44,545 bases of DNA, taken from contig NVWC01000004.1 in assembly GCA_002317795.1 (NCBI GenBank), positions 54,454-98,998 of the forward strand, in the 5' to 3' direction. The notes beneath the pieces were generated by a model. The model ran no database searches and was not told the DNA's origin. It saw only the letters and a list, made by a program, of their open reading frames with translations. Both the position numbers and the translations under genes were made by a program. Source of the stretch: Nitrososphaerota archaeon (GTDB taxonomy: Archaea; Thermoproteota; Nitrososphaeria; Nitrososphaerales; Nitrosopumilaceae). Position 1 is the first letter of the stretch. Each line of letters opens with the position of its first letter. Positions 5,223 through 28,793 of this stretch are shown piece after piece.

Positions 5223-5232
5223 GATTTATCAC

Positions 5233-6114: not shown

Positions 6115-6141
6115 TATTAATGATAACTAAAAAGCGGTATC

Positions 6142-6636: not shown

Positions 6637-6672
6637 TCAAAGGATTTATTCTAGTGATAAAGAGATTAAGTA

Positions 6673-11953: not shown

Positions 11954-11954
11954 T

Positions 11955-13022: not shown

Positions 13023-13049
13023 TGCATGGGTATAAAAAAATTTTTGAAT

Positions 13050-13760: not shown

Positions 13761-13812
13761 TAAATTACATTAAAAAGTTCTCAGTATGAATTGTTATCGG
13801 TAGAAATTTTCT

Positions 13813-14625
13813 TTAAGAAAGATCCAATTGAAGGATGTAATTTTTAATATTTCCAAAGAAAGGTGGATTTGATTTATTCTGAAATTTATTAGTAAAAAAG
13901 AGTAAAATATCTTTTAAAGGATTTGCATAAGGAGTACCAAGATAAGGTGATATTTCTTGAGTTATTTTCAAATTTAGAGATTTTATCATATAGTGAAAAG
14001 ACTTGTTTGTAAAAAAATGAGGGGAAAGATCGGGCGTATAGAAGCCAAATTTTTCTTTATAATACCTACTAGTAAATGATGAAAAATTAGGTAATGAAGA
14101 AACTAGGATAATACCATTTTTTTTTAAAAGATCAGTTGCACATTTCAAATTATTTATTGGATCTACAGAATGTTGTATTACACCTCTAAATTGTATGAAA
14201 TCAAATTTGTCTTTGGTGGAAAAATTACAAAGAGTCATCTTATGGAAATTACAATCAGGATGTAGTTTTTTTGCTTCTTCAATTATATTTGTGGATAAAT
14301 CTATTCCAATTTTTTTTAAATTTTGTGGTAAAGATGAAAAAAAATCTCCATGAGCACAGCCTACATCTAAAAATGAACCTTGGAACTTTTTAAAATTTGA
14401 TATCCAATCAATTTCATTTAGATACATAAATTTTCTTTTTTCATCTTGTTTTCTGTAAATGGTATTGTATGTATTCTCATACAAATCACTCCAATAGCTA
14501 TCATCAGTTATTCGTTTACTGAACTTATGAGTACATGTTACACATTGTAAAATACCAAGAAATGGTTCAATTTTATCAGTTTTACATATTGGGCAGTTCA
14601 TATTTGTGATAAGATTGAAATTCAA
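13813..14625 (-). CDS. Class I SAM-dependent methyltransferase with N-terminal Cys4 zinc-ribbon
   Basis: 270 aa. Zinc-ribbon residues 'CPICK...CVTCTH', then SAM motif I 'FLDVGCAHGDF'. Confidence 0.7.
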   Translation of the reverse strand: MNFNLITNMNCPICKTDKIEPFLGILQCVTCTHKFSKRITDDSYWSDLYENTYNTIYRKQDEKRKFMYLNEIDWISNFKKFQGSFLDVGCAHGDFFSSLPQNLKKIGIDLSTNIIEEAKKLHPDCNFHKMTLCNFSTKDKFDFIQFRGVIQHSVDPINNLKCATDLLKKNGIILVSSLPNFSSFTSRYYKEKFGFYTPDLSPHFFTNKSFHYMIKSLNLKITQEISPYLGTPYANPLKDILLFFTNKFQNKSNPPFFGNIKNYILQLDLS

Positions 14626-14638
14626 TATTATAAAGTTG

Positions 14639-15955
14639 TTAAATGTGTTTTTGTAAAAGGTTTTTTTGTATTAACATATTTGCAGCATTTACAATAATGT
14701 TAAAATTAATTCCAGATTTGTTAGAAATGTCTAATAATGAATTCTCGCCATCAGATAGATTAAGTATCCATTGTATTGCATTTTTAGTAAGATCATTTAC
14801 TTTTTGACCCCCTAACGTATCATATAATCCACGTTTACTTAACTGAGGTTCACATTTTGGAATCAAATTAAGAAATTTTGCATTATTTTCCAGTACAAAA
14901 ATAATTTCAATGTATTTTGTAATAGAATCTTTCAAATTGTTTGCATTTACAAATTCTAAATTATCAGCAGAAGTATGATATTCATCGAATTTTCCATACA
15001 TGGTTTTCATCAATGAGCCTACTGGGAGATTAAATCCAGGAGAACAAAATTGTCGTTCATCACTTCCTGAAGGAAAAAAATCCAATAGTGTAAATTTACT
15101 GTTTGAATTTTGTAATACATTAATTACAACTTGATCGATTTCTGCATTTCCGCGTCTACTTTTTTTATATGTAAAGCTTCCAGAATCACCTAAACATGTA
15201 GCAACTAACCCATGTTTAATTTTAAAAGTATTTTTTTCATTTATTGATAACCAAGCTATTGCACCTATTGTTTCAGGAATAAACAAAAATCGATAAGAAT
15301 AATTTAAAGATAATTTACTCAAATATTTAGCAAGAAAAGTAACTAATGTAACTCCAGAAAGATTATCGTTACATAATGATGGATGACAAGTATAACAAGT
15401 GATTAGAATTTCATTTTCTGTTTTACCTTTAATAAAATATTCACCATATGTTAGATGGCCATCATCAAGAGACGAATCAATTACTATTTCATACTCCCCA
15501 TCAATTAATTCCAAAAATTGGTTATGTGTGAGACAAAAACCCCAATCTTCAGAATAATAACTAGTCAAATATGGAATACTGTCTGGTTGTTTTGGTAGAG
15601 TATGTAATTTTTTTTTTAATTCAGTTAGAAATATTTTTTTCTTAACTGGAATACTATAATTTACAATATGTAAATTAGATTTTTTAAAATCAATTATTTT
15701 TTTGCCTGTAGGATCTATCACATATGCATCATTGATATTCCATTCTTTTGGAATTACCCAATCATAAACTTCAGTACCAGTTGGTACTTCATATGATTGA
15801 ATTTCAAGATGTTTACGTATAATTTCGTGAGTTTTTCTCACATTATTTCCTGTAATACTCCTACATAGAGGATACAAATCTTTCATTAATTGATACATTT
15901 CTTGACTAATATTATCAACTTCAGATAAAATTTTTGTAAAATCATCAAGTTTCAT
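14639..15955 (-). CDS. DUF4910/DUF2172 aminopeptidase-like (M28-like) domain protein with C-terminal winged-helix (COG4310-type)
   Basis: 438 aa. The strings 'LYPLCRSITGNNVRKT', 'VPTGTEVYDWVIPKEWNI', 'IPYLTSYYSEDWGFC', 'CHPSLCNDNLSG', 'GSDERQFCSPGFNLPV', 'EYHTSADN' and 'EPQLSKRGLY' match my recollection of this family's consensus. Confidence 0.75.
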   Translation of the reverse strand: MKLDDFTKILSEVDNISQEMYQLMKDLYPLCRSITGNNVRKTHEIIRKHLEIQSYEVPTGTEVYDWVIPKEWNINDAYVIDPTGKKIIDFKKSNLHIVNYSIPVKKKIFLTELKKKLHTLPKQPDSIPYLTSYYSEDWGFCLTHNQFLELIDGEYEIVIDSSLDDGHLTYGEYFIKGKTENEILITCYTCHPSLCNDNLSGVTLVTFLAKYLSKLSLNYSYRFLFIPETIGAIAWLSINEKNTFKIKHGLVATCLGDSGSFTYKKSRRGNAEIDQVVINVLQNSNSKFTLLDFFPSGSDERQFCSPGFNLPVGSLMKTMYGKFDEYHTSADNLEFVNANNLKDSITKYIEIIFVLENNAKFLNLIPKCEPQLSKRGLYDTLGGQKVNDLTKNAIQWILNLSDGENSLLDISNKSGINFNIIVNAANMLIQKNLLQKHI

Positions 15956-15994: not shown

Positions 15995-17869
15995 TTAGAA
16001 AGACGTTATATTGTTTGCTAGTGATTCTGATGCACTACCATGATTTACAAGATATTTTTTCAAAAAGATTTGTCCATTAGCAATCAGTTTTGAACAAAAG
16101 TCATCATTAAACAATACATCATTTAGAATTTTATCAATAGGTTCTTTGTCAGATATTGATAAAATTGCATTATCTTTATCAAATTGAAAATCATATGATT
16201 TATCATCTAAAACAATGTTAACTACAGGTTTTTTCATAACTAATCCTTCTAGCATGACTGTAGAAGTATCAAAACTTTCTGGACTAATATTTACTAATAC
16301 ATTACATGAATCAATTAAATCAATTATTGGTTTCACATGATAAATTGGAATTTTTGGATCTATGTCATGAAACACATCAGTCATAAAACTTTCATATTCA
16401 TCTTGGCCTGGATGTAATTTAACAACTACTTCAACATTAGGAATTTTTTTTACAACATTATAAAAAGATCTTAAAAAATTCTCCAATCGCAGATAAAGAT
16501 GTGTGTCACCAAAAGCAGATAAATTTGTTATTGGATGAGGCGTAATAAGAATAATTTTTTTTTGCTGCATTGGAGAAAGTTGCCTATTAAAAAAAGAATC
16601 ATGTCTTGGACTACCTGAAACTAAAATCTTATCAGGATTAAATTGATGTTGAGTAAGAAGATAGTTTTTTTGAATATCACCCCATACTGCTATTTGATCT
16701 TTTAATAATGAATACATATGAAAAATATCAAATTTTTTCAATTCTGGTGTATGATTTGCAAATCCATGTTCTAAAAGAACAAATGGGATTTGATGTTTAT
16801 TAATTGCAAGAAAAGATTTCTCAGTTTCTCCAACAACATTCAATCCAATAACACAACTTAGATTGGATTGTTTAACAATATTCTTAGAAGCTACTAAAAG
16901 TGAAATATATTCATGAAATCTTTTCTTGTACGTTTCAATGAGAGTATCTTTTATACAAGACCAAAATGAAACTCCTTCCATACAAAATATAGTATTAAAA
17001 ATTACATCATCTGAAAATAGGTATTCTAATTTTTCATTAGAGGTTTGAGTAACAGAAAGTATTTTTTCCTTTTCATTCTTTGAAATAATTTTTTGAAAAT
17101 CTAGAATTTTTGATCCAGAATTCAATAAAGATTTTATTGATTTTATGCTCCAAAGTGAAGTTCTTCGTCGATTTAGAATCAAAATATTGACATTATGCGT
17201 TCCCAAATGGTAAAGTAAGTCATCATATTGAGAAGGATCAAATTCCAATAATAGAATAGTGTTTTTTTTATTATCAAACTTGAAGGATAGCTTTAGAAAT
17301 TTTGTTAGTATTGATTCCAACAAATAAACAAAATTTTGATAATATTTTCTACCAATGTGAAAAGAAATAGGAATAAAACCAATATTGAATTTTATTTGTA
17401 TTTTATCCCAGGGTAGACGATATTTTTCATTGTGCCCAATTACATGGATATTAATTTTTTGATCTTTCGTAAGAGCACGTATTATTTTACTTAGAGTGTT
17501 TGTTACAAAAATTTTAGTTGGTTTTTCTTTTTCAAGAATCCTCTTTATCAATAAAAAATTGAATAAATTAGTGATCAGTAAATGATGAAGTTCAGCAGTA
17601 TCTAACAATTCTAAAAGATTTACATTTTCAAATTCTATTTGTTTTGAAATTGAGTCATCATCATACCATCTATACAGATTTAATGTGAAATCATAAATTT
17701 TTAATCTATCATCAGAGCTCAAATATGTTTCAGCTATTTCATGAGTGATTTTTTCTTTTTCAAGAGTTTTGTGAACCGTTATGTTAAAAGAAAAAATTTT
17801 TGATTGTGATGAATTAAGATTTTTTTTATGTATTCCATAAATGTTGTCTAAAAAAGTTAGTTTAGTCAT
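15995..17869 (-). CDS. Large uncharacterised protein with GT-B/TagF-like C-terminal domain; putative glycan transferase
   Basis: 624 aa. The C-terminal 'ILITPHP...VVVKLHPGQDE...VNISPESFDTSTVMLEGLVMKKPVVNI' resembles the C-terminus of the 507-aa protein at 8793-10316. The N-terminal ~400 aa show no motif I recognise. Confidence 0.3.
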   Translation of the reverse strand: MTKLTFLDNIYGIHKKNLNSSQSKIFSFNITVHKTLEKEKITHEIAETYLSSDDRLKIYDFTLNLYRWYDDDSISKQIEFENVNLLELLDTAELHHLLITNLFNFLLIKRILEKEKPTKIFVTNTLSKIIRALTKDQKINIHVIGHNEKYRLPWDKIQIKFNIGFIPISFHIGRKYYQNFVYLLESILTKFLKLSFKFDNKKNTILLLEFDPSQYDDLLYHLGTHNVNILILNRRRTSLWSIKSIKSLLNSGSKILDFQKIISKNEKEKILSVTQTSNEKLEYLFSDDVIFNTIFCMEGVSFWSCIKDTLIETYKKRFHEYISLLVASKNIVKQSNLSCVIGLNVVGETEKSFLAINKHQIPFVLLEHGFANHTPELKKFDIFHMYSLLKDQIAVWGDIQKNYLLTQHQFNPDKILVSGSPRHDSFFNRQLSPMQQKKIILITPHPITNLSAFGDTHLYLRLENFLRSFYNVVKKIPNVEVVVKLHPGQDEYESFMTDVFHDIDPKIPIYHVKPIIDLIDSCNVLVNISPESFDTSTVMLEGLVMKKPVVNIVLDDKSYDFQFDKDNAILSISDKEPIDKILNDVLFNDDFCSKLIANGQIFLKKYLVNHGSASESLANNITSF

Positions 17870-17983: not shown

Positions 17984-18988
17984 ATGTTTGATGGTAAAAC
18001 CATTCTAATAACTGGTGGAACAGGCTCTCTTGGTTCTGCATTAACAAAAAGACTGCTCAAAGAAAAAGTAGCAAAAATCCGAATTTTCAGTAGGGATGAA
18101 TTGAAACAAGTCAACATGAAATCTCAGTTACCAGATAAAAGGCTAAGATTTTTGATAGGCGATATTAGAGATAAAGATAGATTATACAGGGCAATGGAGA
18201 ATGTTGATATTGTTTTTCATGCTGCTGCACTTAAACAAGTTCCAGTGGCAGAATACAATCCATTTGAATTTGTTAAAACAAATGTAAATGGTGCCCAAAA
18301 TGTAATTGATTCTTGTCTTGATAATAAAGTTGAATTAGCTTTAGCTATTGGAACTGACAAAGCAGTTTCTCCATCAACTACATATGGTGCAACAAAACTT
18401 CTAATGGAAAGATTATTTCTGTCAGCTAATTTTTACAGAGGTGATAGAAAAACAAAGTTTGTTTGTGTAAGATATGGAAATGTTTTAGGAAGCAGAGGTT
18501 CAATATTTCCAGTATTTGTTGAAAATATTATTTCAAAAGGAAAAATACCAATAACAGATCCAACTATGACACGATTTAATATTACCATGACGCAAGCTAT
18601 TGATTTAATTTTTAGAGCTGTTAAACATGGTTCAGGTGGTGAAGTATTTGTTCCAAAATTAAAAGCATTTACAGTAGAAGAAATGAAAAATGCAATAATA
18701 GAACTACTGAATAAAAAAGCTAAAACAATAAAAATTCCCGTCAGGGTTGGAGAAAAATATCATGAAATATTAATTAGTAAACATGAAATTAGAAATACAT
18801 ATGAATCAAAAGATGATTACATTGTTTACAATTTTGGTGGGGAAGGATTAGATGAAAAGAAAAAAATACCTTTCAAGAAAACTAAACTAAATAAAGAATA
18901 TTCATCAGATAGTACTAAATTATTTACAAAAAATGAACTTAAATCAATAATTACAAAAGAAGGAATCTTATCTGATTTTAAGATTTGA
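17984..18988 (+). CDS. pseB: UDP-N-acetylglucosamine 4,6-dehydratase (PseB/FlaA1/CapD-like extended SDR)
   Basis: 334 aa. The N-terminus 'MFDGKTILITGGTGSLGSAL', 'FHAAALKQVP' and catalytic 'YGATK' are typical of PseB/FlaA1. Confidence 0.7.
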   Translation: MFDGKTILITGGTGSLGSALTKRLLKEKVAKIRIFSRDELKQVNMKSQLPDKRLRFLIGDIRDKDRLYRAMENVDIVFHAAALKQVPVAEYNPFEFVKTNVNGAQNVIDSCLDNKVELALAIGTDKAVSPSTTYGATKLLMERLFLSANFYRGDRKTKFVCVRYGNVLGSRGSIFPVFVENIISKGKIPITDPTMTRFNITMTQAIDLIFRAVKHGSGGEVFVPKLKAFTVEEMKNAIIELLNKKAKTIKIPVRVGEKYHEILISKHEIRNTYESKDDYIVYNFGGEGLDEKKKIPFKKTKLNKEYSSDSTKLFTKNELKSIITKEGILSDFKI

Positions 18989-19430
18989 CTTTCCACTTTG
19001 ACCAATCATAATCAGAAAACTCTACATTTTCCATTTCATTATCATTTGGTTGCCAGGCGATATTTGTTAATGTCAAAATTCTTGAGGTAGAATCAGATAT
19101 GTTAATGTGTGCTGATGGAAAATTTTTAGGTACAAATATGATCACTGGGTTTTCTGCATCAGATTCAATTTCCTGAAATCCATCATCGGTTTTAATAATA
19201 AAAACAACTTTGCCATGAATACATGTAAAATAACTGTCTCTTCTTTTATGAAGATGAGGTCCTTTTATTTCTCCAGATTTAACAGAACTGACATAAACCA
19301 TTTTTGGTTCAGTTTTGATAATATCGTCATAGTCCCTCCAGATGACAGTCAAAGAGCCATTCACATGAGAATCTTTGATATCTGTAGTAGGATGTTTTTC
19401 TAATTTGAAAACAGTTGGAATTTCTGCCAT
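18978..19430 (-). CDS. Cupin-fold sugar-nucleotide epimerase/ketoisomerase-like protein (RmlC/WxcM/FdtA-like)
   Basis: 150 aa. Cupin core 'GEIKGPHLHKRRDSYFTCIHGKVVFII'. Specificity cannot be determined. Confidence 0.45.
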   Translation of the reverse strand: MAEIPTVFKLEKHPTTDIKDSHVNGSLTVIWRDYDDIIKTEPKMVYVSSVKSGEIKGPHLHKRRDSYFTCIHGKVVFIIKTDDGFQEIESDAENPVIIFVPKNFPSAHINISDSTSRILTLTNIAWQPNDNEMENVEFSDYDWSKWKVKS

Positions 19431-19521: not shown

Positions 19522-20508
19522 TTGAAATTATTAGTTACTGGTGGTTTGGGTTTTATCGGGAGTAATTTTATCTTAAAAACATTAGAAAAGAACAAGGACT
19601 GGGAAATAATCAATATTGACGATAAACTGTATGGTTCCAATTCAAAAAGTCTGGAAAAAATTGAAAAATCAAATAGATATGAATTTGTTAAAGGAAATAT
19701 CACAAATAAAGAGATTTTAGATAAAACAATGATAAAATGTGATGCTGTAATTAATTTTGCAGCAGAATCTTTTGTGGATAGAAGCATATCAGATGCAACA
19801 TCATCTTTTGATTCTAATCTTAAAGGAATTTTTATTTTATTAGAATTAATTAAGAAATATAAAAAAAGACTAGTTCAAGTTTCAACAGATGAAGTTTTTG
19901 GAAGTTTAGACAAAGGAAGTGCAAATGAAATTTTCCGTTTTAATCCTTCTAGTCCATATTCTGCAACTAAAGCAGGAGCTGAATTATTGGTAAATTCATA
20001 CTTCATAACATATGGCTGTAATTGTGTTATCACACGATGTACTAATAATTATGGACCGAGACAATTTCCTGAGAAATTAATTCCAAAAATAATTCTTTTA
20101 GCAGAACAAGGGAAAAAAATTCCAATTTATGGAACTGGTACTAATATTCGAGATTGGATTTTTGTTGATGATCATTGTGATGCAGTGTTCAACGTATTAA
20201 ATAATGGTAAAGCAGGTGAATCATACAATATTTCAGCAGATAACGAAATTAGTAATATATCAATTGTAAAAAAAATTTTGGCTTTGATGAATAAATCAGA
20301 AGATTTGATGGAATTTGTTGAAGATCGTCCAGGCCATGATTTTAGATATAGTATGGATTCTTCCAAGATAAGATCTGAATTGGGTTGGAAAAATAAAGTG
20401 AAATTTGATGATGGTTTAAAAAAGACAGTTAATTGGTACCTGTCAAATAATGATTGGTGGAAAAATATAGTTAAAGATTCTCTAAATCAGACGCCCTGGA
20501 AAAACTAA
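19522..20508 (+). CDS. rfbB: dTDP-glucose 4,6-dehydratase (copy 1)
   Basis: 328 aa with a TTG start. Motifs 'MKLLVTGGLGFIGSNF', 'STDEVFG', 'YSATKAGAE', 'RCTNNYGPRQFPEKLIP' and 'RPGHDFRYS'. Confidence 0.9.
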   Translation: MKLLVTGGLGFIGSNFILKTLEKNKDWEIINIDDKLYGSNSKSLEKIEKSNRYEFVKGNITNKEILDKTMIKCDAVINFAAESFVDRSISDATSSFDSNLKGIFILLELIKKYKKRLVQVSTDEVFGSLDKGSANEIFRFNPSSPYSATKAGAELLVNSYFITYGCNCVITRCTNNYGPRQFPEKLIPKIILLAEQGKKIPIYGTGTNIRDWIFVDDHCDAVFNVLNNGKAGESYNISADNEISNISIVKKILALMNKSEDLMEFVEDRPGHDFRYSMDSSKIRSELGWKNKVKFDDGLKKTVNWYLSNNDWWKNIVKDSLNQTPWKN

Positions 20509-20545: not shown

Positions 20546-21610
20546 ATGAAAGGAATTCTTCTTCATGGAGGTCATGGAACTAGATTAAGGCCACTAACTC
20601 ATACTGGTCCAAAGCAGTTACTACCAATTGCAAATAAACCCATGTCAGAATATTGTATTGAATCAATGAAGGAAGCAGGAGTCAAAGATATTGTAATTAT
20701 CATAGGAGGTATTGGTTCACAAAAAGTAAAAGACTATTATGGAAATGGCGAAAAATTTGGTGTCAACATTAGTTATATTCATCAGGATTTTCCTCGTGGA
20801 ATATCACATGCAATTAGTTTATGTGAAGATTTTATTGGTGATGAAAAATTTCTTGTTTTCTTGGGAGACAATATCATTCAAAAATCAATAAGTGTATTTG
20901 GAATGGAGTTTGAAAAATCTAATGCTGCTGCATCAATTCTTTTGTGTGAAGTGGATAATCCCAATAGGTTTGGAATTGCTGACATTAAAGATGGTAAAAT
21001 CAAGAAGATTGTTGAAAAACCTAAAGAGCCTCCAACAAATTTAGCTGTAACTGGAATTTATTTTTTGACACCAGTAATTTTTGATATTATTAAAAGATTA
21101 AAACCATCTTGGAGAAATGAATTAGAGATAACAGATGCGTTAGATATGTTATTGAATGAAAACCATATAATTACTTACAACATGATTACTGATTACTGGA
21201 AAGATACTGGTACTCCTGAAGATATAATTCATGCAAATAAAACCATTTTAGAAAATTTATCTGCAGATTTTAGAGGTAAAATGGAATCTACTGTTTCTTT
21301 AGAAGGTAATGTATCAGTTGGAAATGATACTTTGATCAAAAATGAAGTGAAAATAAAAGGTCCAGTAATAATTGGAAAAAATTGTGAAATTTATGGTGAT
21401 GCCATAATTGGACCAAATACAAGCATTGGGAATGGATGTATAATTTCAGGAGGGAAAATAAAAGATTCTATAATTATGGATAATTGTGAAATTGGAAAAA
21501 ATGTAAATATAAAAAATAGTATAATTTCATCAAATTCAAGTATAAAACATAATAACACGCAAGATGAGCAAATTTTTCTTTTAGGGGAAGGAACAAAAAT
21601 ATTATTTTAG
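20546..21610 (+). CDS. Glucose-1-phosphate thymidylyltransferase-type sugar-1-P nucleotidyltransferase, long form with C-terminal left-handed beta-helix
   Basis: 354 aa. The N-terminus 'GILLHGGHGTRLRPLTHTGPKQLLPIANKP' is followed by C-terminal hexapeptide repeats (IIGKNCEIYGDAIIGPNTSIGNGCII). Confidence 0.8.
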   Translation: MKGILLHGGHGTRLRPLTHTGPKQLLPIANKPMSEYCIESMKEAGVKDIVIIIGGIGSQKVKDYYGNGEKFGVNISYIHQDFPRGISHAISLCEDFIGDEKFLVFLGDNIIQKSISVFGMEFEKSNAAASILLCEVDNPNRFGIADIKDGKIKKIVEKPKEPPTNLAVTGIYFLTPVIFDIIKRLKPSWRNELEITDALDMLLNENHIITYNMITDYWKDTGTPEDIIHANKTILENLSADFRGKMESTVSLEGNVSVGNDTLIKNEVKIKGPVIIGKNCEIYGDAIIGPNTSIGNGCIISGGKIKDSIIMDNCEIGKNVNIKNSIISSNSSIKHNNTQDEQIFLLGEGTKILF

Positions 21611-21663: not shown

Positions 21664-22722
21664 ATGATTGATGAGCAGGAAAAATCACTTGTAAGTATAA
21701 TTATTTTAAATTATAATGCAGGAGATTTATTGATAAATTGTGTAAAGTCTGTTTTTGAAACAAATTATAAAAATTATGAAGTAATAGTAGTAGACAATAT
21801 TTCTACGGACAATAGTCACAAAAAATGTAAGGAAAGATTTGAAAATATTCAATTAATTGAAAATATAGAAAATTTTGGATATTGTGAAGGAAATAACATA
21901 GGAATTAGAAAAGCTCGAGGAGAATTCATAGTAATTTTAAATCCAGATACAATTGTTGAACCTAATTGGTTAGATGAATTTTTAAAAGCATATTCAAAAT
22001 TTGGTGATGGTCTTTATCAACCAAAAATTCTTTCACTGTATGAAAAAGATGTGTTACAAAGTACAGGAAATATGATACATCTTTTTGGTTTTGGTTTTGC
22101 AAGAGATAAAGGAGTTGTCGATAAAAAACAATATAAAAAAATAGAGAAAATTGGATATGCTTCGGGTACATGTCTTTTTACATCATCTAAAGTTTTTAAC
22201 AAGATAGGACTACTTGATCCTTTTTTGTTTCTTTATCATGATGATTTAGATTTAGGATGGAGAGCAGCACAAATAGGAATTAATTCTTTTTTTGTTCCAA
22301 ATGTTAAAATTTTACATGCTGAAAGTTATATTTTAAAATGGAGTTCAAAGAAATTTTATTGGTTAGAACGTAATAGAAAATATTGTCTTTTAACTCATTT
22401 TTCTAAAGACACATATAAAAAAATGAGATTTAATCTGTTATTAGTTGATTTTTTTGTATGGATTTTTTATATTTCTAAAGGATTTGTAGGTGCTAAAATA
22501 AAAGCAGAATTAGATATTTACAAAAACAAAAAACAAATTGAAAAAAAATATATTGAATTAGAAAGTAAAAAAATTATTCAAGATCATGAATTGATTAAAA
22601 AATTTCCAGATAAAATTTTTGTTCCAAAAAATGTCACTAAAGGTATTATCAATAATTTATTTAATTCAATACTTGAAAAATTAAGTAAAAAAACAAAAGC
22701 AAGTATTTTTCAAAAAAATTAG
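21664..22722 (+). CDS. GT2-family glycosyltransferase (rhamnosyltransferase-like)
   Basis: 352 aa. Motifs 'VSIIILNYNAGD', 'VVDNISTDNS', 'ILNPDT' and a 'DDLDLGWR' DxD-like motif. Confidence 0.8.
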   Translation: MIDEQEKSLVSIIILNYNAGDLLINCVKSVFETNYKNYEVIVVDNISTDNSHKKCKERFENIQLIENIENFGYCEGNNIGIRKARGEFIVILNPDTIVEPNWLDEFLKAYSKFGDGLYQPKILSLYEKDVLQSTGNMIHLFGFGFARDKGVVDKKQYKKIEKIGYASGTCLFTSSKVFNKIGLLDPFLFLYHDDLDLGWRAAQIGINSFFVPNVKILHAESYILKWSSKKFYWLERNRKYCLLTHFSKDTYKKMRFNLLLVDFFVWIFYISKGFVGAKIKAELDIYKNKKQIEKKYIELESKKIIQDHELIKKFPDKIFVPKNVTKGIINNLFNSILEKLSKKTKASIFQKN

Positions 22723-23072
22723 TTTATTAATTCTGAAATAACAATAGCAATTGCATAATTTTTTTCATGACTAATAGATGCACGAAAAATATATTTTTTT
22801 TTGAAATTCAGCAATTCAATATTAGGTTTAGATTGTTTATGTGAAGTTACAATTTTAGAAATATAGATATTTTCATTGATTGATTTTTTGACAGCTTCCT
22901 TTAAAGCAAATTTTCCAGCAAAGTGAGGAGATGGTTTTTTGTATTTTAAACAATAATCAATTTCTGATGGTTGAAAGATTTTATTATATAATCCAGGGGT
23001 TTTTTCATATGAAATTTTTTCAAAATCAGATATATGAGTAATATCGATTCCAATTCCAAGTTTTTCAATCAT
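22719..23072 (-). CDS. acpS: Holo-ACP synthase (AcpS-type 4'-phosphopantetheinyl transferase)
   Basis: 117 aa. Motifs 'LGIGIDITHISDF' and 'FAGKFALKEAVKK'. It is the last gene of the FkbH-ACP-MaoC-AcpS operon. Confidence 0.75.
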   Translation of the reverse strand: MIEKLGIGIDITHISDFEKISYEKTPGLYNKIFQPSEIDYCLKYKKPSPHFAGKFALKEAVKKSINENIYISKIVTSHKQSKPNIELLNFKKKYIFRASISHEKNYAIAIVISELIN

Positions 23073-23075
23073 TTT

Positions 23076-23501
23076 TTATCTAACAATGACTTTTGCCACA
23101 CCATCAATTAAACAGGTTCCAGATTCATTTAGAATAGAAGTAGAAATAGAAATAATTCTTGTTGAACTACTCTTCTCAGTCACTTTACCTATAACTTGAA
23201 TTTTATCATCAATATAACAAGGTGAACGAAAGTTTAGAGTTTGTGAAAAATAAAGAGCATTTTTTCCAGGTAATTTCATGCCTATTAATTGTGAGAAAAA
23301 AGAAGCTAGCAACATTCCATGTACAATTCTTTTTCCATATGTACTTGAAACTGCATATTCATCATTCATGTGTAATGGATTCAAATCTCCAGAAAAGTTA
23401 CTAAATTCATCAACCATAGATTCAGTAATTTTTTTTGAAAAACTTTCTTTTTGTCCAATGAATATATCATCAAATGATAACTCATTTGCAATTTCAGTCA
23501 T
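23076..23501 (-). CDS. MaoC-like (R)-specific hydratase/dehydratase (hot-dog fold)
   Basis: 141 aa. Hydratase-2 core 'FSGDLNPLHMNDEYA' and 'IVHGML'. Confidence 0.8.
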   Translation of the reverse strand: MTEIANELSFDDIFIGQKESFSKKITESMVDEFSNFSGDLNPLHMNDEYAVSSTYGKRIVHGMLLASFFSQLIGMKLPGKNALYFSQTLNFRSPCYIDDKIQVIGKVTEKSSSTRIISISTSILNESGTCLIDGVAKVIVR

Positions 23502-23733
23502 TAAAATTTACACCGTGGTTTTGTAAGTGACGTTTTATATCAGATACATTTTTGACATCCATTGCTTCATCAATAGAAAATTTAACATCAAAATTAGTTT
23601 CCAATTCATCTAACAAAACATATCCATTAAAAGATGTCCAATTTGAAATAGACGTAGGACTTGATTCATCATTTATTTCTTCTATGTTAATGTTCATTAC
23701 TTTTGAAATAATTTTATATAATTTTTCAGCCAT
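23494..23733 (-). CDS. Acyl carrier protein (stand-alone PP-binding domain)
   Basis: 79 aa and acidic. The candidate attachment Ser lies in 'NWTSFNGYVLLDELE' (a DSL-like position), followed by helix III 'SIDEAMDV'. Its start overlaps the FkbH stop (TAATG). Confidence 0.7.
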   Translation of the reverse strand: MAEKLYKIISKVMNINIEEINDESSPTSISNWTSFNGYVLLDELETNFDVKFSIDEAMDVKNVSDIKRHLQNHGVNFND

Positions 23734-25487
23734 TATTTTACTCTTAAAGTTAAAAATTCAGGCATACTGAAAGGTGTTTCGATATTATAAACCCAATAAT
23801 CATTTTCTTTAGAAAATTTAGAATCTGGAAGTAAGTGTTCTATTGGTTTATTTTTTGTGGTGGGAATAAATTTAGCTTTAAGTCTTTTTACATTATTTTT
23901 TCTTGCTTCATTTATTATGTGATACAATATCGCTTTCTCAATTTCACGCCCCATAACTCTACAGCTAAGAAGAAAAGTATCTAAAAACCATTCATCTGAA
24001 TTAGTTTTTTCAACTATAAAGGCACCAGTAATTCCATTATCACCAAATTTATCTCGTATTTGTGCACAGCCTACTAGCATTTTATCATCTTCAGAGAATT
24101 TTTTGATTTCTTCTTCCTGATATCTTTTTGTAGTAAGATTGAATTGGTTTGTTTTCATAGTGAGTTGAGAAATTCTTGGGATGGTAAAACTGTCTGATTT
24201 TTTAATATCTATTTCTAAATTTAATGTTTTAAGAAATTCAGTAAGATTAGTTGATGATTTTTGAGATTCACTTCTTTGTTTTTGTTGAAAATACATTTTT
24301 CTTCGATTAGTATCTTCATTTGTCACCTGAAAGACACTAAAATCATGTAATGATTGAATTACTTCAGAATATTGAGACGGGTCATGAGGAAGATCGGGGG
24401 TAGTTATTTCAGGCATGTTTTCTTTAACGAATTCTCTGTTGACTGGGTCATCATCGAAAAAAACAAAACTATCTAATCCTATGTTAAGTTCTTCAGAAAT
24501 ATATTGCATATTTGATACTTTATCATCCCAATTAATTTTCATACAAGCAAAATCATCTTCTTTTAAAATCATATGTGGATGTTCACGAATTACTTGAATA
24601 GCATCATCAAAATTATTTTTACTGTTTATTGCAAGTATTATTCCTCTTTGGGATAATGCTTTCAAATATTTTTGAAATTCTACAAAAGCATTTCCGGGAG
24701 GTTGAGGACCTAAGCGAATTCCATCAAAACCATCCTCACCTACAATTCCGCCCCAAAGTGTATTATCAAGATCTAGTACAATACATTTTTTTGTTAAACC
24801 AAGAAAAGATATAACATATGGAATTAAGTCATTTGCTAAATGTGGAATATAATCAAGTGCAATTTTAATATCACCAAATAGATAATTTTGAAAATTAAAA
24901 ACATTATTTTCTCCATGTTGAATCACAAATTTAAAAAAATCAAATATATGAACAGAATCCATCTCAATTACTTTATCCTTAAGTTTTTTATTAAAATCAA
25001 TAATGGCATCATGAAAACTATAACTTGTTTTCATTTCTGCAATTCCATGCGGAGAATAATGTGGTAATCCTAAATTTGTTATTACAAGTTTTGAAGTAGT
25101 GGTTTCATTAAATTTTTCAATCAAGTTTAACAATTCATTAATTTTTTCATCTACAAAATTTTTTCTTTCTGATTTTGTTATAGAATAAGGAAAATGGAAT
25201 AAATTACCAAAAATACTTCTTGTATCTAAAATTAAAAATGTTATATCAGGTGAGAAACTGTATAAATTACTTTTTGTATCAAAAATCTCTTGATTATATT
25301 GATTATATCCAGCAACATATGTGGAACCAAAAATTTGTTTTTGCGAACATTTGACTTTAAGTGATTCAGCTAATCCATTAATTGTAAAGCTGGATAAAAT
25401 TGCTAATTTGATTTTATTCTTATAATCATTAATTTCTATTTTTTGTGAATCTAAAATATATTCTGATAGAGGTTTTACTTTATCCAT
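23733..25487 (-). CDS. FkbH-like protein (HAD-IIIC phosphatase/acyl-loading enzyme with C-terminal GNAT-like domain)
   Basis: 584 aa. HAD motif I 'CIVLDLDNTLWGGIVGEDG', then 'ILAINSKN' and 'FFDDDPVNRE'. The C-terminal 'ISQLTMKTNQFNLTTKRY...SCRVMGREIE' is typical of the FkbH family. Confidence 0.8.
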   Translation of the reverse strand: MDKVKPLSEYILDSQKIEINDYKNKIKLAILSSFTINGLAESLKVKCSQKQIFGSTYVAGYNQYNQEIFDTKSNLYSFSPDITFLILDTRSIFGNLFHFPYSITKSERKNFVDEKINELLNLIEKFNETTTSKLVITNLGLPHYSPHGIAEMKTSYSFHDAIIDFNKKLKDKVIEMDSVHIFDFFKFVIQHGENNVFNFQNYLFGDIKIALDYIPHLANDLIPYVISFLGLTKKCIVLDLDNTLWGGIVGEDGFDGIRLGPQPPGNAFVEFQKYLKALSQRGIILAINSKNNFDDAIQVIREHPHMILKEDDFACMKINWDDKVSNMQYISEELNIGLDSFVFFDDDPVNREFVKENMPEITTPDLPHDPSQYSEVIQSLHDFSVFQVTNEDTNRRKMYFQQKQRSESQKSSTNLTEFLKTLNLEIDIKKSDSFTIPRISQLTMKTNQFNLTTKRYQEEEIKKFSEDDKMLVGCAQIRDKFGDNGITGAFIVEKTNSDEWFLDTFLLSCRVMGREIEKAILYHIINEARKNNVKRLKAKFIPTTKNKPIEHLLPDSKFSKENDYWVYNIETPFSMPEFLTLRVK

Positions 25488-25608
25488 TATTTCAAATATT
25501 GTAATTTAACCTTAAATATTTACTAGATGTGTGTATTTCAAACAAAATTGACTAATTTTTTCTTCATAAGCCTTTAAAGCCAAAAACCAATTTTTCATAG
25601 TGAATTAG

Positions 25609-26151
25609 ATGGAAAATTCTGAAGATGTATTTTCAATAAATGAACAAGAAGTGATGGAATATTATGATCTTAAAGGTTCTTCTGGTAAAATAAAATTAAA
25701 ATTAAAAATGCTACGATCTTGGATTTTACATTATATTGCATATTCGTCTCCTTTGTCAAATTTTGTAATTAATATACAAAGATCAAGAGGGGTAATAATT
25801 GGAAAAAATTGTCATCTATCACCATATGTGTTAATAGATTTAGTATATCCAGGGTTAGTCAAAATTGAAGACAATGTCACCTTAGGTTCAAATTCAATGA
25901 TTTTTGCACACATCAACCCAACTGCAAATCTAAAGTTAAAAAAAACTCAGTATCCAAGAAAAATTGCTCAAGTAATTATTAAATCAGGAGCAGTTATCAA
26001 TCCAGGAGTAATAATTACTGCAGGAGTAACAATTGGAAAAAATGCAATAGTTTCCATAGGTAGTGCAGTTTTTGAAGATGTGCCAGATAATTGTGTAGTT
26101 TTAGGTAATCCTGCTAGAGTGGTAAAAAAACTTGATTTGGAAGAAAAGTAA
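25609..26151 (+). CDS. Hexapeptide-repeat (LbH) O-/N-acetyltransferase (WcaF/maltose acetyltransferase-like)
   Basis: 180 aa. Repeats 'IEDNVTLGSNSMIF' and 'IKSGAVINPGVIITAGVTIGKNAIVSIGSAV...VLGNPARVV'. Confidence 0.75.
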   Translation: MENSEDVFSINEQEVMEYYDLKGSSGKIKLKLKMLRSWILHYIAYSSPLSNFVINIQRSRGVIIGKNCHLSPYVLIDLVYPGLVKIEDNVTLGSNSMIFAHINPTANLKLKKTQYPRKIAQVIIKSGAVINPGVIITAGVTIGKNAIVSIGSAVFEDVPDNCVVLGNPARVVKKLDLEEK

Positions 26152-26189: not shown

Positions 26190-27020
26190 TTGAATTTACT
26201 TGGAATAGATTTTGAAGATTGGTTTCATCCAGAATTAATCCAAAAAGTATTAACAAATGAAGAAAAACAACCAAAAGTAATTCAAGGACTTGATAAAATT
26301 ATTGATTGGTTAAACCATCATGATACTTATGCAACTTTTTTTGTTGTTGGAGAATTATTAGAATATCAACCAGAACTTTTTGATAAAATTATTGAAAATG
26401 GTCATGAAATAGGTTTCCATACAATGCATCATACAAGATTAGATACTATTGGTTTTAAAGAAAAATTTCAAGAAGAAATTAAAATTTTTGATAAAATGAC
26501 ATCAGGAAAATCCATAGGATTCAGAGCACCGACTTTTTCGTTAAATGATTCAAGTAGATGGCTAATTGACGTTTTAGAAAATAGTAAATATCAATATGAT
26601 AGTAGTGTTGTTCCAGTAAAAACAAGTATGTATGGATTGCCAAATGCGGAAAAATATCCTTACAAAATTAGCAGTAAATCATTGGAGCATGAAGATCCTG
26701 AATCAAATATAACTGAATTTCCAATATTAGTTACTAATTTCTTAGGGAAAAGAATTCCTGCAGGAGGGGGATTCTATGTTAGAACATTACCACAAAAAAT
26801 CATTACAAATGCTATAAAAAATTATGAAAAAAACAACAATCCAGCAGTATTTTATATTCATTCTTGGGAATTAACACCAGAATATATGCCTAGAATAAAA
26901 TTATCATTAAAAGATAATTTCATCACATATCATAATATAGAAAAAACATTATCAAAAATGGATAAAATATTGAATGATTTTTCTTTTACATCATTTAAAA
27001 GATTTCTTAAGAGTGCTTAA
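26190..27020 (+). CDS. Polysaccharide deacetylase (CE4 family)
   Basis: 276 aa with a TTG start. Motifs 'GIDFEDWFHPE', 'ATFFVVGE', 'GHEIGFHTMHH' and 'GFRAPTFS'. Confidence 0.75.
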   Translation: MNLLGIDFEDWFHPELIQKVLTNEEKQPKVIQGLDKIIDWLNHHDTYATFFVVGELLEYQPELFDKIIENGHEIGFHTMHHTRLDTIGFKEKFQEEIKIFDKMTSGKSIGFRAPTFSLNDSSRWLIDVLENSKYQYDSSVVPVKTSMYGLPNAEKYPYKISSKSLEHEDPESNITEFPILVTNFLGKRIPAGGGFYVRTLPQKIITNAIKNYEKNNNPAVFYIHSWELTPEYMPRIKLSLKDNFITYHNIEKTLSKMDKILNDFSFTSFKRFLKSA

Positions 27021-27945
27021 CAGAGTGAAAAAAATCGAGAGTGTTTTGAATGCCAGTTTTGAGATCAACCTTAGGTGTCCAACCTAAATTTTTTAATTTT
27101 CTATTACTAACCACAAAATTTCCTACATCAACTTTTTTTGTATATGTTGGTGTTTTGATATAACTAACTTTTGCATTAGTCATTTTTTCTAATAAATTTC
27201 CTAATTGGAAAAACCAAGTTTTTTTAGAAGAAGAAATCCAATAAAGTTCACCTGAATGTCCTTTTTTAATAATAGTTTTGATTCCTGAAATCACATCAGA
27301 AATGTATATCAAATCTCTAAAAATTTTTCCTTCGTTAAATATTGTAATATTTTCATCATTAAATGCTTGATGAATTAAATAGTTTACTGCATTCTTTTTT
27401 GGGATAGTTTGCTCTCTGGGTCCAAAAGAGTTTGTAATTCTAAAAATTTTTGTATCGATTCCATAAACGTTGTGATAAATTTTACAATAAAATTCACTAG
27501 CTAATCTATTAGTTCCATATAATGTGGTAGGGTTACAAGGTGTATCTTCGGTTACGGGAAGTTTGTTAGGAGGACCAACTACAATGAATGTACTTCCTAA
27601 AACAAAGCTACATTTTTTTTTCATGTTCTTAATTTTTTCAAGAATAAAAAGTGTAGATTTTAAATTTGAATTTATATCATCGATAGGGTTTTCAAATGAT
27701 TTTAAATGAGATGTTTCTCCTGCCAAATGAATAATCAAATCAGGTTTATGTCTATCAATTGAATCACTAAGTTTTCTATAATTTGTAACATTTACTTTAT
27801 CAAGTTTCATTCGTTTTGAAATTTTTAGATTAGATTTTTTTTTATAACTTCTTGTAAGAATGATAATTTCATGACCATCTTTGTTTAATTCATCAGCTAA
27901 ATGACTTCCAACAAATCCTAAGCCACCAGTTATCATTATACGCAT
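27007..27945 (-). CDS. NAD-dependent sugar-nucleotide epimerase/dehydratase (extended SDR) with atypical YxxxR
   Basis: 312 aa. The N-terminus is 'MRIMITGGLGFVGSHL'. The expected catalytic segment reads 'LYGTNRLASE' (Arg where Lys is expected), followed by 'RITNSFGPRE'. Confidence 0.75.
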   Translation of the reverse strand: MRIMITGGLGFVGSHLADELNKDGHEIIILTRSYKKKSNLKISKRMKLDKVNVTNYRKLSDSIDRHKPDLIIHLAGETSHLKSFENPIDDINSNLKSTLFILEKIKNMKKKCSFVLGSTFIVVGPPNKLPVTEDTPCNPTTLYGTNRLASEFYCKIYHNVYGIDTKIFRITNSFGPREQTIPKKNAVNYLIHQAFNDENITIFNEGKIFRDLIYISDVISGIKTIIKKGHSGELYWISSSKKTWFFQLGNLLEKMTNAKVSYIKTPTYTKKVDVGNFVVSNRKLKNLGWTPKVDLKTGIQNTLDFFHSVKHS

Positions 27946-28022: not shown

Positions 28023-28793
28023 ATGAAGCCCACTATAGAAAAATTTAAAATTTTTCTGAAAGTAATGAAAGTACTTAGAAATTGGTGGTTGTATCCAATT
28101 GTGTATTTAAAATTAATAAAAAAACCTACAGTAATTTTTGAAACAAAAAATGGAATAAAAATCATGTTAAGAACAGATTCTACAGATCTTATGGCTTTCA
28201 CACATGTATGGTTAATTGGTGAATATTCAAAAAATAATTTTCAAATTAAGAAAACAGATACTGTAATTGATGTAGGAGCACATATAGGATTATTTTCACT
28301 TTATGCTTCTCAAAATTGTACTGAAGGTAAAATTTTTGCATTTGAACCAATTAAAGAGAATTATAAAATTTTAGAATCAAATAAAAAACTAAATAAATCG
28401 TCTAATATTATATCTGAAAATTGTGCAATTTCAAAATCAACTTCAAAAATTATATTGTATAAAAATAATGATGAAGCAGGTCATAGTAAATTTATACAAA
28501 CTGATGATCCTGTAGAAGTTGCTTCAAAATCATTAAATGATTTTTTTAAAGATAATAAAATAGAATTGGTAAATTTATTAAAATTAGATTGTGAAGGTTC
28601 AGAATATGAAATTATTGATTCATTAGACGACAAATATTTTGAGAAAATTGAAAAAATGATAATTGAGTATCATTTAGCAGATTCAAATCCTGAATTATTA
28701 GAAAAATTAAAAAATAAATTGAAATATCATTCTTATAATATTTCTGTTGAACCGTTATTCCAAGATATTGGATTTTTGTATGCTAAAAAATAA
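28023..28793 (+). CDS. FkbM-family SAM-dependent methyltransferase
   Basis: 256 aa. Motifs 'VIDVGAHIGLFSLYAS', 'IFAFEP' and 'LLKLDCEGSEYEII'. Confidence 0.8.
   Translation: MKPTIEKFKIFLKVMKVLRNWWLYPIVYLKLIKKPTVIFETKNGIKIMLRTDSTDLMAFTHVWLIGEYSKNNFQIKKTDTVIDVGAHIGLFSLYASQNCTEGKIFAFEPIKENYKILESNKKLNKSSNIISENCAISKSTSKIILYKNNDEAGHSKFIQTDDPVEVASKSLNDFFKDNKIELVNLLKLDCEGSEYEIIDSLDDKYFEKIEKMIIEYHLADSNPELLEKLKNKLKYHSYNISVEPLFQDIGFLYAKK

Follow-up and report, generated by a model that had tools for sequence, protein, structure and literature searches.

A putative carrier-protein module for three-carbon acylation of surface sugars in a glycan island of ammonia-oxidising archaea

What use would an archaeon have for an acyl carrier protein (ACP) and a dedicated enzyme to activate it? 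The question is raised by four genes in a 44.5-kb stretch of DNA, here called the window and itself part of a 134-kb metagenome scaffold, which encode an FkbH-like loader, an ACP, a MaoC-type dehydratase and a phosphopantetheinyl transferase (PPTase) of the AcpS type. Reviews and a 2024 preprint state that nearly all Archaea are without ACP and ACP synthase and ascribe the rare exceptions to transfer from bacteria, so that the literature still agrees with a preliminary description of this DNA, which held that Archaea generally lack both. The reading proposed in that description is broadly upheld and gains from the comparisons made here, with the amendments given below. On balance we think it probable that the four genes form a donor module for a three-carbon (C3) acyl group that is independent of host metabolism, and that a neighbouring deacetylase frees an amine that a left-handed beta-helix (LbH) acyltransferase re-acylates from acyl-ACP. 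Glyceryl loading by FkbH-ACP pairs is already known; what is most likely new is its reuse for glycan decoration in archaea, combined with a PPTase of its own and an exchangeable slot for a tailoring gene. Among the papers listed by full-text literature searches on archaea, ammonia-oxidising archaea (AOA) included, none mentioned FkbH.

The four genes are transcribed in the same direction and are closely packed:

23733-25487, minus strand, gene for the long-form FkbH-like loader (584 aa)
23494-23733, minus strand, ACP gene (79 aa)
23076-23501, minus strand, MaoC gene (141 aa)
22719-23072, minus strand, AcpS gene (117 aa)

Open reading frames and the minus-strand sequence reproduce exactly the coordinates and junctions given in the preliminary description. 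The sequence TAATG at 23731-23735 is shared by the FkbH stop and the ACP start, the ACP and MaoC genes share 8 nt (23494-23501), and a 3-nt gap separates the MaoC stop from the AcpS ATG. The order FkbH-ACP-MaoC-AcpS is also present in independent contigs in which FkbH is as little as ~60% identical, and the four-gene set recurs in unrelated genomes with components 34-46% identical; the arrangement is far beyond chance. Mean GC of the window outside the cassette is ~26%. The FkbH protein has close relatives in the thousands. The sole organism-named sequence among the best 120 FkbH matches is from Ca. Nitrosotenuis chungbukensis (61% identity), which has the same gene block, and a species-level genome collection searched with the FkbH protein gave one match, at 79% identity, in the single-cell genome of an uncultured Candidatus Nitrosopumilus. 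Because of these two relatives the host is assigned to the Nitrosopumilaceae, a group of AOA, and the archaeal origin supposed earlier holds.

Profile searches bear out the earlier assignments of all four products, and the motifs on which these were based (LDLDNTLWGG, WTSF, SGDLNPLH, GIGIDI and KFALKEAVKK) are all present. The FkbH-like protein matches NCBIfam TIGR01686 (FkbH; E 1e-90, 304.2 bits vs a cut-off of 146.65), TIGR01681 (HAD-IIIC; 67.4 bits vs 35.75) and Pfam FkbH_N (E 4.5e-16). Its AlphaFold2 (AF2) model (predicted local distance difference test score, pLDDT, 94.1) has three domains: FkbH_N at the N-terminus, a HAD-IIIC phosphatase and, at the C-terminus, a GNAT fold with a conserved Cys. 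Residues 25-385 resemble PDB 3slr, which covers the N-terminal part of the uncharacterised B. fragilis protein BF1531 (sequence E 7e-57; target-normalised template-modelling score, TM, 0.90), the HAD core matches MDP-1, and the C-terminal domain matches many GNAT acetyltransferases, as its earlier description as GNAT-like would have it. The motif LDLDNTLWGG holds D239 and D241 of HAD motif I (D239-L-D241-N-T243). In an alignment of 64 diverse homologues with identities down to 33%, D239, D241, S289, N291, K323, D345 and S508-C509-R510 are invariant and D346 is near-invariant. The S508-C509-R510 triplet sits in the GNAT-fold domain, and Cys509 would be the counterpart of the Cys that carries the S-glyceryl group in OzmB. 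The characterised OzmB has 366 aa and is without the N-terminal domain (PMC9057759). The window protein, judged by its sequence, is a long form (~580 aa) with an extra N-terminal domain of ~230 aa, a class that is uncharacterised.

The ACP scores above the gathering score of PF00550 PP-binding (23.4 bits vs 20.8) and below the cut-off of TIGR00517, the equivalog for AcpP of the fatty acid synthase type (22 bits vs 70), and is therefore not a housekeeping AcpP. In 52 FkbH-adjacent ACPs W32, S34 and E45 are invariant. Ser34 lies in WTSF, in which W-T-S replaces the usual D-S-L, and is the predicted phosphopantetheine site; in a single-sequence AF2 model (pLDDT 78), which agrees with the four-helix bundle of ACPs, helix II spans residues 35-48 and starts right after it, and the top-50 PDB matches of the model in a fold search are all ACPs (TM 0.65-0.82). 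AcpS matches PF01648 ACPS (E 8.9e-13, 48.7 bits vs 25) and TIGR00556 (56.3 bits vs 45.35), narrowly misses the equivalog TIGR00516 (54.0 bits vs 59.8), and its 11 PDB matches are all holo-ACP synthases or AcpS-type PPTases. It contains the motifs GIGIDI and KFALKEAVKK, of which IGIDI and FALKEA align with the corresponding motifs of holo-ACP synthase 5xuk; the Mg-binding Asp of G-I-D-I and the Glu of K-E-A are thereby conserved.

Is the pairing of ACP with its own PPTase peculiar to this genome? An exhaustive search (E <=0.001) returned 14,139 clusters of FkbH-like proteins at 50% identity. Gene contexts were annotated by iterated searches at the nearest loci and at 80 metagenome loci, with FkbH identities from 90% to 31%; these searches cross-matched within the extended short-chain dehydrogenases/reductases (SDRs) and between LbH proteins and the C-terminus of RmlA, and were read with length filters. 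GC served as a proxy for an archaeal or candidate phyla radiation (CPR) host as against a typical bacterial one, with some loci confirmed by name. An ACP lies near FkbH at 51 of the 52 loci with enough flanking sequence. AcpS, counted within 4 kb of FkbH, accompanies the FkbH-ACP pair at 22 of 26 low-GC loci (GC <=0.45) vs 1 of 26 high-GC loci (GC >=0.50; Fisher p 2e-9), or about 2 of 26 with the further high-GC locus L011, whose AcpS was lost to the length filter. Bacterial plasmid homologues (~30% identity) pair FkbH with an ACP and are without an AcpS-type PPTase. The named low-GC or AcpS-linked groups are Nitrosopumilaceae, Thorarchaeota, Promethearchaeota, Odinarchaeota, Woesearchaeota (L095) and the CPR Uhrbacteria (L096), and the AcpS-linked locus L012 is on an archaeal contig with fibrillarin, Nop and eRF1 genes. 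CPR bacteria are expected to be without type II fatty acid synthesis (FAS-II). Linkage of AcpS thus tracks hosts described or expected to lack FAS-II, which is the pattern predicted by the argument, put forward in the preliminary description, that a module independent of its host needs a private PPTase.

The same data do not fit a singular acquisition, since the module occurs widely, in Nitrosopumilaceae and Thorarchaeota as well as in DPANN archaea and CPR bacteria. Clustered homologues of all four window proteins exist in genomes of GC 0.32-0.58, with identities to the window protein of 42-46% for FkbH, 34-41% for ACP, 37-46% for MaoC and 34-35% for AcpS. A horizontal origin of the cassette is plausible; the co-divergence of FkbH and its partners (Mantel r 0.59-0.81) is not evidence for transfer, because inheritance as a module and ordinary shared ancestry are inseparable in it. 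In the Woesearchaeota (DPANN) locus (L095, 5634-9360, GCA_016187495.1) the order is AcpS-FkbH-ACP-MaoC followed by an aminoglycoside-3-N-acetyltransferase-like gene, and the locus also contains genes for DegT, a formyltransferase, a GFO/IDH/MocA oxidoreductase and UDP-sugar dehydrogenases. We note that it is a second version of the module with MaoC only, and has an N-acyltransferase gene directly behind it.

In the Thorarchaeota clade three loci (L045, L046, L048) have a five-gene unit of AcpS-FkbH-ACP with an LbH acyltransferase and a deacetylase. The unit of L046 (6437-10298) is surrounded by housekeeping and lipid genes and not by a glycan island, its neighbours being an archaeal ThrRS editing domain, geranylgeranyl reductase, an XPB-like helicase and an HMG-CoA reductase N-terminal domain. 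This adjacency to geranylgeranyl reductase and HMG-CoA reductase might suggest that the cassette feeds a lipid, or a polyketide or tetronate-like small molecule, and not a glycan; FkbH-ACP pairs are classic parts of polyketide synthases (PKSs), and a Pseudalkalibacillus plasmid locus (L008) is a cluster of ketosynthase, ketoreductase (KR) and dehydratase (DH) genes. Such a role is nonetheless highly improbable, for there is no ketosynthase, FabH or acyltransferase (AT) domain gene in the 44.5-kb window or in the annotated archaeal loci, and the Nitrosopumilaceae neighbours are all sugar-nucleotide, glycosyltransferase or glycan-modifying genes.

What, then, is made on the ACP? The gene between ACP and AcpS provides an indication. 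In the window it encodes MaoC (MaoC_dehydratas E 2.7e-17), whose nearest relative of known structure is PhaJ of A. caviae (1iq6, E 1.3e-24), with SGDLNPLH aligned to SEDFNPLH of PhaJ. We take the Asp and His of this hydratase motif to be catalytic, and A. caviae PhaJ prefers short chains. The position is not always filled by MaoC. Within the clade of FkbH identity >=49%, 21 loci have enough downstream sequence, and the slot is occupied by MaoC in 13, by a VOC protein in seven and by neither in one. The VOC protein (134-145 aa) matches methylmalonyl-CoA epimerase from end to end (TIGR03081 E ~1e-21, below cut-off; Glyoxalase_4 E 4e-23), and takes the exact place of MaoC in sister, Nitrosopumilaceae-like loci:

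L018, 9011-9415, VOC protein gene
L026, 3869-4306, VOC protein gene
L032, 8957-9388, VOC protein gene
L035, 8969-9385, VOC protein gene

A FabG-like ketoreductase gene directly follows MaoC in five loci (L011, L036, L064, L082 and L096), and the slot is empty in the Thorarchaeota loci and in L012 and L038. The slot therefore looks allelic, able to receive one tailoring gene or another. Because MaoC and methylmalonyl-CoA epimerase both begin with the removal of an alpha-proton from an acyl thioester, the slot enzyme probably acts on the ACP-bound acyl group, and this shared chemistry is the strongest indirect evidence that it does so. For MaoC, action on ACP-bound glyceryl would also fit its translational coupling to the ACP gene, together with the slot alternatives. 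Starting from a 2,3-dihydroxypropanoyl thioester, an empty slot is expected to give D-glyceroyl, an epimerase its C2 epimer, MaoC a 2-hydroxyacryloyl group tautomerising to pyruvoyl, and MaoC with a ketoreductase a lactyl group. The preliminary description had named glyceroyl as the donor, with pyruvoyl among the possible dehydration products. Given MaoC, glyceroyl is no longer the expected product of the window cassette; pyruvoyl becomes the direct prediction, with lactyl predicted where a ketoreductase follows.

A plausible scenario, in which we infer the 1,3-bisphosphoglycerate (1,3-BPG) substrate, the MaoC product, the transferring enzyme and the acceptor sugar, is as follows. AcpS would convert the 79-aa apo-ACP to holo-ACP at Ser34. 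The FkbH-like protein would take the glyceryl unit of 1,3-BPG onto Cys509, and its HAD domain (D239/D241) would strip the phosphate before the glyceryl is handed to the ACP. MaoC would then remove the alpha-proton and the beta-hydroxyl of glyceryl-S-ACP to give 2-hydroxyacryloyl-ACP, which would tautomerise to pyruvoyl-S-ACP, and a non-adjacent reductase might turn this into lactyl-ACP. In the final steps the polysaccharide deacetylase would strip the N-acetyl group from an amino sugar, exposing an amine, and the divergently transcribed LbH acyltransferase would re-acylate it using acyl-ACP, a logic like that of LpxC and LpxD; as acceptor in this genome, either a product of the RmlA/RmlB/FdtA-like pathway or a glycan-bound hexosamine is most likely.

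The first part of this scheme is established for PKS systems, in which FkbH converts 1,3-BPG through phosphoglyceryl-S-enzyme and glyceryl-S-enzyme to glyceryl-ACP (PMC9057759; PMC7489565). With the FkbH/OzmB systems of actinomycete PKSs, which supply methoxymalonyl-ACP and tetronate units, the window shares the HAD-IIIC core, a C-terminal domain with a presumed catalytic Cys, a stand-alone ACP next door and a TIGR01686 score above cut-off. Unlike them it has the ~230-aa N-terminal extension, its own AcpS, an archaeal host, a glycan context and no PKS, and the cassette is not adjoined by FkbK/FkbI-type dehydrogenases, an FkbG-type methyltransferase or a FabH-like tetronate-forming enzyme. For an FkbH loading domain, a published pathway reconstruction gives the net reaction as 1,3-BPG + ACP to D-lactyl-ACP, citing Zhang 2011 (PMC7901079). 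The loading modules of trans-AT PKSs (FR901464, bryostatin) combine FkbH with a dehydratase, as does the window, and the ketoreductase is shared by the five loci with a FabG-like gene, so that the chemical route from glyceryl through pyruvoyl to lactyl would be the same. Zhang 2011 and Sudek 2007 are said to report the order of the DH and KR domains in these modules. Unlike them, the window has stand-alone proteins, a hotdog dehydratase of the MaoC/PhaJ kind instead of a PKS DH, no adjacent KR and no ketosynthase extension.

The N-terminal domain missing from the 366-aa OzmB, and the fact that the sole solved relative, 3slr (BF1531), is uncharacterised, leave room for a long-form FkbH-like protein that loads some other phosphorylated or activated acid in place of 1,3-BPG, in which case the acyl group would not be derived from glycerate. 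We regard this as very unlikely, since the score of its HAD and GNAT-like core is far in excess of the FkbH family cut-off, the 64 diverse sequences retain the aspartates of the phosphatase and the cysteine of the SCR triplet, and partners of the MaoC, MaoC plus KR and epimerase kinds all suit a 2,3-dihydroxyacyl thioester.

Which enzyme would transfer the acyl group, and to what? The preliminary description regarded the four genes as self-contained, and this needs amending, as the conserved unit also takes in an LbH acyltransferase and a deacetylase and, in the Nitrosopumilaceae, genes for a GT2 glycosyltransferase, RmlA, RmlB and an FdtA-like protein. In the window these are arranged about the cassette as follows:

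27007-27945, minus strand, epimerase/dehydratase of the extended SDR type (Epimerase E 6e-46)
26190-27020, plus strand, polysaccharide deacetylase, NodB-type with DUF3473 (DUF3473 E 1.4e-33; Polysacc_deac_1 E 2.5e-14)
25609-26151, plus strand, LbH (hexapeptide) acyltransferase (Hexapep E 4e-10)
25488-25608, 121-bp intergenic region between the divergent FkbH and LbH genes
21664-22722, plus strand, GT2 glycosyltransferase (Glycos_transf_2 E 3.8e-26), convergent with AcpS
20546-21610, plus strand, RmlA, long-form glucose-1-phosphate thymidylyltransferase (TIGR01208, 402 bits vs a cut-off of 320)
19522-20508, plus strand, RmlB, dTDP-glucose 4,6-dehydratase (TIGR01181, 430 bits vs a cut-off of 365)
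18978-19430, minus strand, FdtA-like cupin, possible 3,4-ketoisomerase (Pfam FdtA E 1.6e-16; no NCBIfam match)

The order SDR epimerase, deacetylase (DUF3473), LbH, divergent FkbH, ACP, MaoC, AcpS, convergent GT2, RmlA, RmlB and FdtA-like is kept in L004 (Nitrosotenuis) and in the marine metagenome contigs L005-7, in which FkbH is 61% identical, and the block is therefore conserved from Nitrosopumilus to Nitrosotenuis. The GT2 and AcpS genes converge with a 4-nt overlap at their stop codons (22719-22722), which L004 and L005 retain. Within the intergenic region an A/T-rich, TATA-like box, TTAAATATTT (plus-strand 25511-25520), precedes the FkbH ATG by ~24-33 nt. Six Nitrosopumilaceae loci share its core, AAAT..TTA, without variation, and the box looks like an archaeal TATA box that may act as a promoter.

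The LbH acyltransferase and the deacetylase rank next to ACP and AcpS as the most constant partners of the module. The LbH gene is divergent to or adjoins FkbH in most Nitrosopumilaceae loci, in the Thorarchaeota (35-37% identity) and in archaeal L012 (35%), where it precedes AcpS; the deacetylase, a TIGR03006-like protein at 200 bits (below the cut-off of 276), adjoins the LbH gene in both Nitrosopumilaceae and Thorarchaeota. In L013, a low-GC metagenome contig, a Polysacc_deac_1 domain is fused to FkbH in an 876-aa protein (4664-7294), and at the P0121 locus a PIG-L deacetylase is nearby. Because the LbH acyltransferase and the deacetylase are so constant, and one deacetylase is fused to FkbH, a sequence of deacetylation and re-acylation like that of LpxC and LpxD is suggested. 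The likeness to the lipid A enzymes extends to a deacetylase, an LbH protein and an ACP encoded together and to the proposed order of reactions, and would be one of logic only: unlike LpxC/LpxD the window has a NodB-type DUF3473 deacetylase, an LbH protein that is not an LpxD orthologue (matches to LpxA and LpxD are weak) and a C3 acyl group instead of a hydroxy fatty acid. The L013 contig also encodes a 1097-aa fusion of Epimerase_2 (NeuC-like), NeuB and 2-Hacid_dh domains (11021-14314), and has a B12-radical-SAM gene between its FkbH and ACP genes.

Elsewhere other acyltransferases directly follow the module, including Antibiotic_NAT (L038, L095), a ~360-aa GNAT protein (L011, L064), MBOAT (L082 and L010, S. 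meliloti pSymB) and WcbI (L009, Niveispirillum), and a donor module with an interchangeable transferase is the simplest reading that these suggest. Four candidates had been named for the transferase in the window. Synteny favours the LbH protein, which is the best candidate for acyl transfer from the ACP; a Cj1295-like protein (14639-15955) is less well placed, being seen in the window alone among the compared loci, as is a FemAB-like protein, found elsewhere only in L014.

The LbH family is a generic one, with best matches to the maltose and galactoside O-acetyltransferases (Maa), WbbJ and WcaF, and these best family and structure matches would suit a C3 acyl group placed as an O-ester on a sugar hydroxyl by the LbH protein, with the deacetylase unrelated and engaged, for example, in trimming acetyl groups from a polymer. 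Some bacterial relatives (L010, L082) also pair FkbH-ACP with MBOAT O-acyltransferases. We think O-esterification quite unlikely, as a coupled role is favoured by the deacetylase::FkbH fusion of L013 and by the recurrence of deacetylase neighbours from two families (NodB-type and PIG-L), and in other relatives it is N-acyltransferase families (Antibiotic_NAT, GNAT) that stand directly after the module.

With N-acylation by the LbH enzyme as the preferred reading, the acceptor may be sought among the sugar genes of the window. This is a glycan island, as was recognised earlier: it contains genes for two NeuB proteins, two CMP-sugar synthetases, PseB- and PseC-like proteins, RmlA, RmlB, the FdtA-like cupin, DegT aminotransferases, GT2 and GT4 glycosyltransferases, a PMT-like protein, and FkbM and class I methyltransferases. 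Because RmlA, RmlB and the FdtA-like gene are fixed in the Nitrosopumilaceae, a dTDP-amino-6-deoxyhexose is suggested as acceptor, and the FdtA-like cupin hints at a dTDP-3-amino-3,6-dideoxyhexose.

The same donor module could instead serve a nonulosonic acid (NulO) of the pseudaminic (Pse) or legionaminic type, acylated at N5 or N7 with the participation of methyltransferases and of a Cj1295-like protein, on the model of the di-O-methylglyceroyl-Pse of C. jejuni or the Pse5Am7Gra of T. forsythia. The window has, besides its two NeuB, two CMP-sugar synthetase and PseB-/PseC-like genes, a possible Cj1295-like gene beside a methyltransferase:

14639-15955, minus strand, possible Cj1295-like protein (DUF4910 E 2e-109, plus DUF2172 and HTH_47)

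The comparison with C. jejuni made in the preliminary description is apt, in that the flagellin locus responsible for 5-N-(2,3-di-O-methylglyceroyl)-pseudaminic acid also has an FkbH-domain gene, cj1302, in a NulO-rich glycosylation island, and the window has methyltransferases and a protein that resembles Cj1295 by description. The C. jejuni locus presumably holds ACP genes as well, and we know of neither a MaoC nor a private AcpS in it. Cj1295, for which an aminopeptidase-like domain is described, is needed for di-O-methylglyceroyl-Pse in C. jejuni (PMC3068675), and its genetics are tied to the glyceroyl modification. The 14639-15955 protein looks like one of the Cj1295 kind, a likeness drawn from that published description. 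FkbH-domain, ACP and putative Cj1295-like parts are all in the window; the last lies 7 kb from the cassette, and no other compared locus has one. Related cassettes lie directly within NulO loci in L011, L013 and L038.

Since these relatives serve NulO pathways, and the window has both NulO genes and a possible Cj1295-like gene, a NulO acceptor is a real alternative, if an unlikely one. The NulO genes of the Nitrosopumilaceae lie outside the block, at a distance of 8-10 kb from the cassette, and vary from one relative to another, whereas RmlA, RmlB, the FdtA-like gene, the LbH gene and the deacetylase are fixed. No NulO genes are near the module in the Thorarchaeota locus examined. Unlike in C. 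jejuni, then, the constant partners in Nitrosopumilaceae are LbH, deacetylase and dTDP-sugar genes and not Pse genes, and the C. jejuni glyceroyl pathway is itself without biochemical characterisation.

Carrier proteins have been drawn into glycan decoration in other bacteria. The tetronate genes of V. cholerae O1 are a case of ACP-dependent N-acyl decoration. In Aeromonas, flagellin glycosylation islands contain a carrier protein and acyl-processing enzymes, as the window does (PMC7874193). The Aeromonas and V. cholerae systems use loading of the AMP-ligase or LuxE type and a host PPTase, and the window has FkbH loading and its own PPTase.

Several observations weigh against the donor-module scheme with re-acylation of an amine. 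No ketoreductase adjoins the window cassette, so its end product could be pyruvoyl or lactyl, and we know of no N-pyruvoyl sugar that has been described. There is no biochemistry for any long-form (~580 aa) FkbH-like protein. Because the nearest families of the LbH protein, Maa and WbbJ, are acetyl-CoA O-acetyltransferases, N-acylation by this protein and its use of acyl-ACP are both putative. No AcpS gene is found within 3.4 kb downstream of FkbH in L014. In Nitrosopumilus piranensis, no N-glycan was detected by glycoproteomics on the S-layer protein (PMC12153357).

More broadly, and tentatively, Nitrosopumilaceae, Thorarchaeota and DPANN archaea may use a true ACP and PPTase pathway for glycerate-derived C3 acylation of surface sugars, not lipids, with the gene in the slot setting the group that is added. 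If so, the versions with MaoC only (the window and the Woesearchaeota locus) would give an N-pyruvoyl sugar, and co-existing strains could alter their surface at little cost by swapping the gene in the slot, for example against viruses. The lack of an ACP and of an ACP synthase in nearly all archaea underlies arguments about the 'lipid divide', and the cassette puts this pair of genes in archaea that rank among the most abundant on Earth, as well as in Asgard and DPANN lineages. Its context is glycan, not lipid, and it therefore accounts for what scattered archaeal ACP genes may do without challenging ACP-independent fatty acid synthesis. The cassette also offers a route to N-glyceroyl, lactyl-type and related sugar decorations; a 2017 report described the genes for the N-glyceroyl group of NulOs in T. 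forsythia and V. vulnificus as unidentified. Marine AOA have large flexible glycosylation islands whose product is unknown, and the cassette, whose proteins are small and soluble, gives a concrete chemical prediction for the surface glycans of these marine ammonia oxidisers.

Among the other features of the window we note the following:

28023-28793, plus strand, FkbM-family methyltransferase (TIGR01444 E 4.5e-33)
15995-17869, 624-aa protein with weak matches only (Epimerase_2; TIGR04396 surface carbohydrate biosynthesis protein)
13050-13760 and 8089-8796, CMP-sugar synthetase genes
11955-13022 and 6673-7503, NeuB genes, one of them short (276 aa)
4551-5222, FabG-like SDR
2144-3259, plus strand, FemAB-like protein (weak FemAB match, E 7e-6)

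The FkbM methyltransferase gene also lies ~2.5-3.3 kb upstream of FkbH in L004, L014, L032, L033 and L035, often just beyond the conserved block. The L005 counterpart of the 624-aa protein is annotated PF27859 (LIC12162), and the gene adjoins the FdtA-like gene in some relatives. The presence of two NeuB and two CMP-sugar synthetase genes suggests that the island encodes two distinct pathways for nonulosonic or ulosonic acids; next to the DUF4910/DUF2172/HTH_47 protein at 14639-15955 are genes for NeuB, a CMP-sugar synthetase and a class I methyltransferase. The FabG-like SDR was considered as the missing ketoreductase and left unassigned, being 18 kb away and having general SDR matches that include the flagellin-modification protein PtmA. 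Four island ORFs of 117-370 aa (36011-37123, 38465-39052, 40112-40585 and 505-858) have no Pfam match at E <=0.001. A scan for sigma-70 promoters and intrinsic terminators, ill-suited to an archaeal host, found sites no more numerous than in shuffled sequence, and there are no tRNA genes or Rfam families in the window.

The FemAB-like gene has a counterpart in L014 (8755-11619), where FkbH is 90% identical and FkbH, ACP and MaoC are kept, with the FemAB-like gene directly after MaoC. It is followed there by a 336-aa gene, taken as the counterpart of the PGI gene of the window, and by the start of an IF-2B-like gene, and the ~19 kb that separate AcpS from the FemAB-like gene in the window are apparently absent. 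On the parent scaffold (L094) a tRNA gene (352-426) lies ~9.6 kb, and a phage-type integrase gene (6559-7338) ~3 kb, upstream of window position 1; they are just outside the left edge of the island, adjoining an IF-2B family gene, and may mark an island boundary or integration site.

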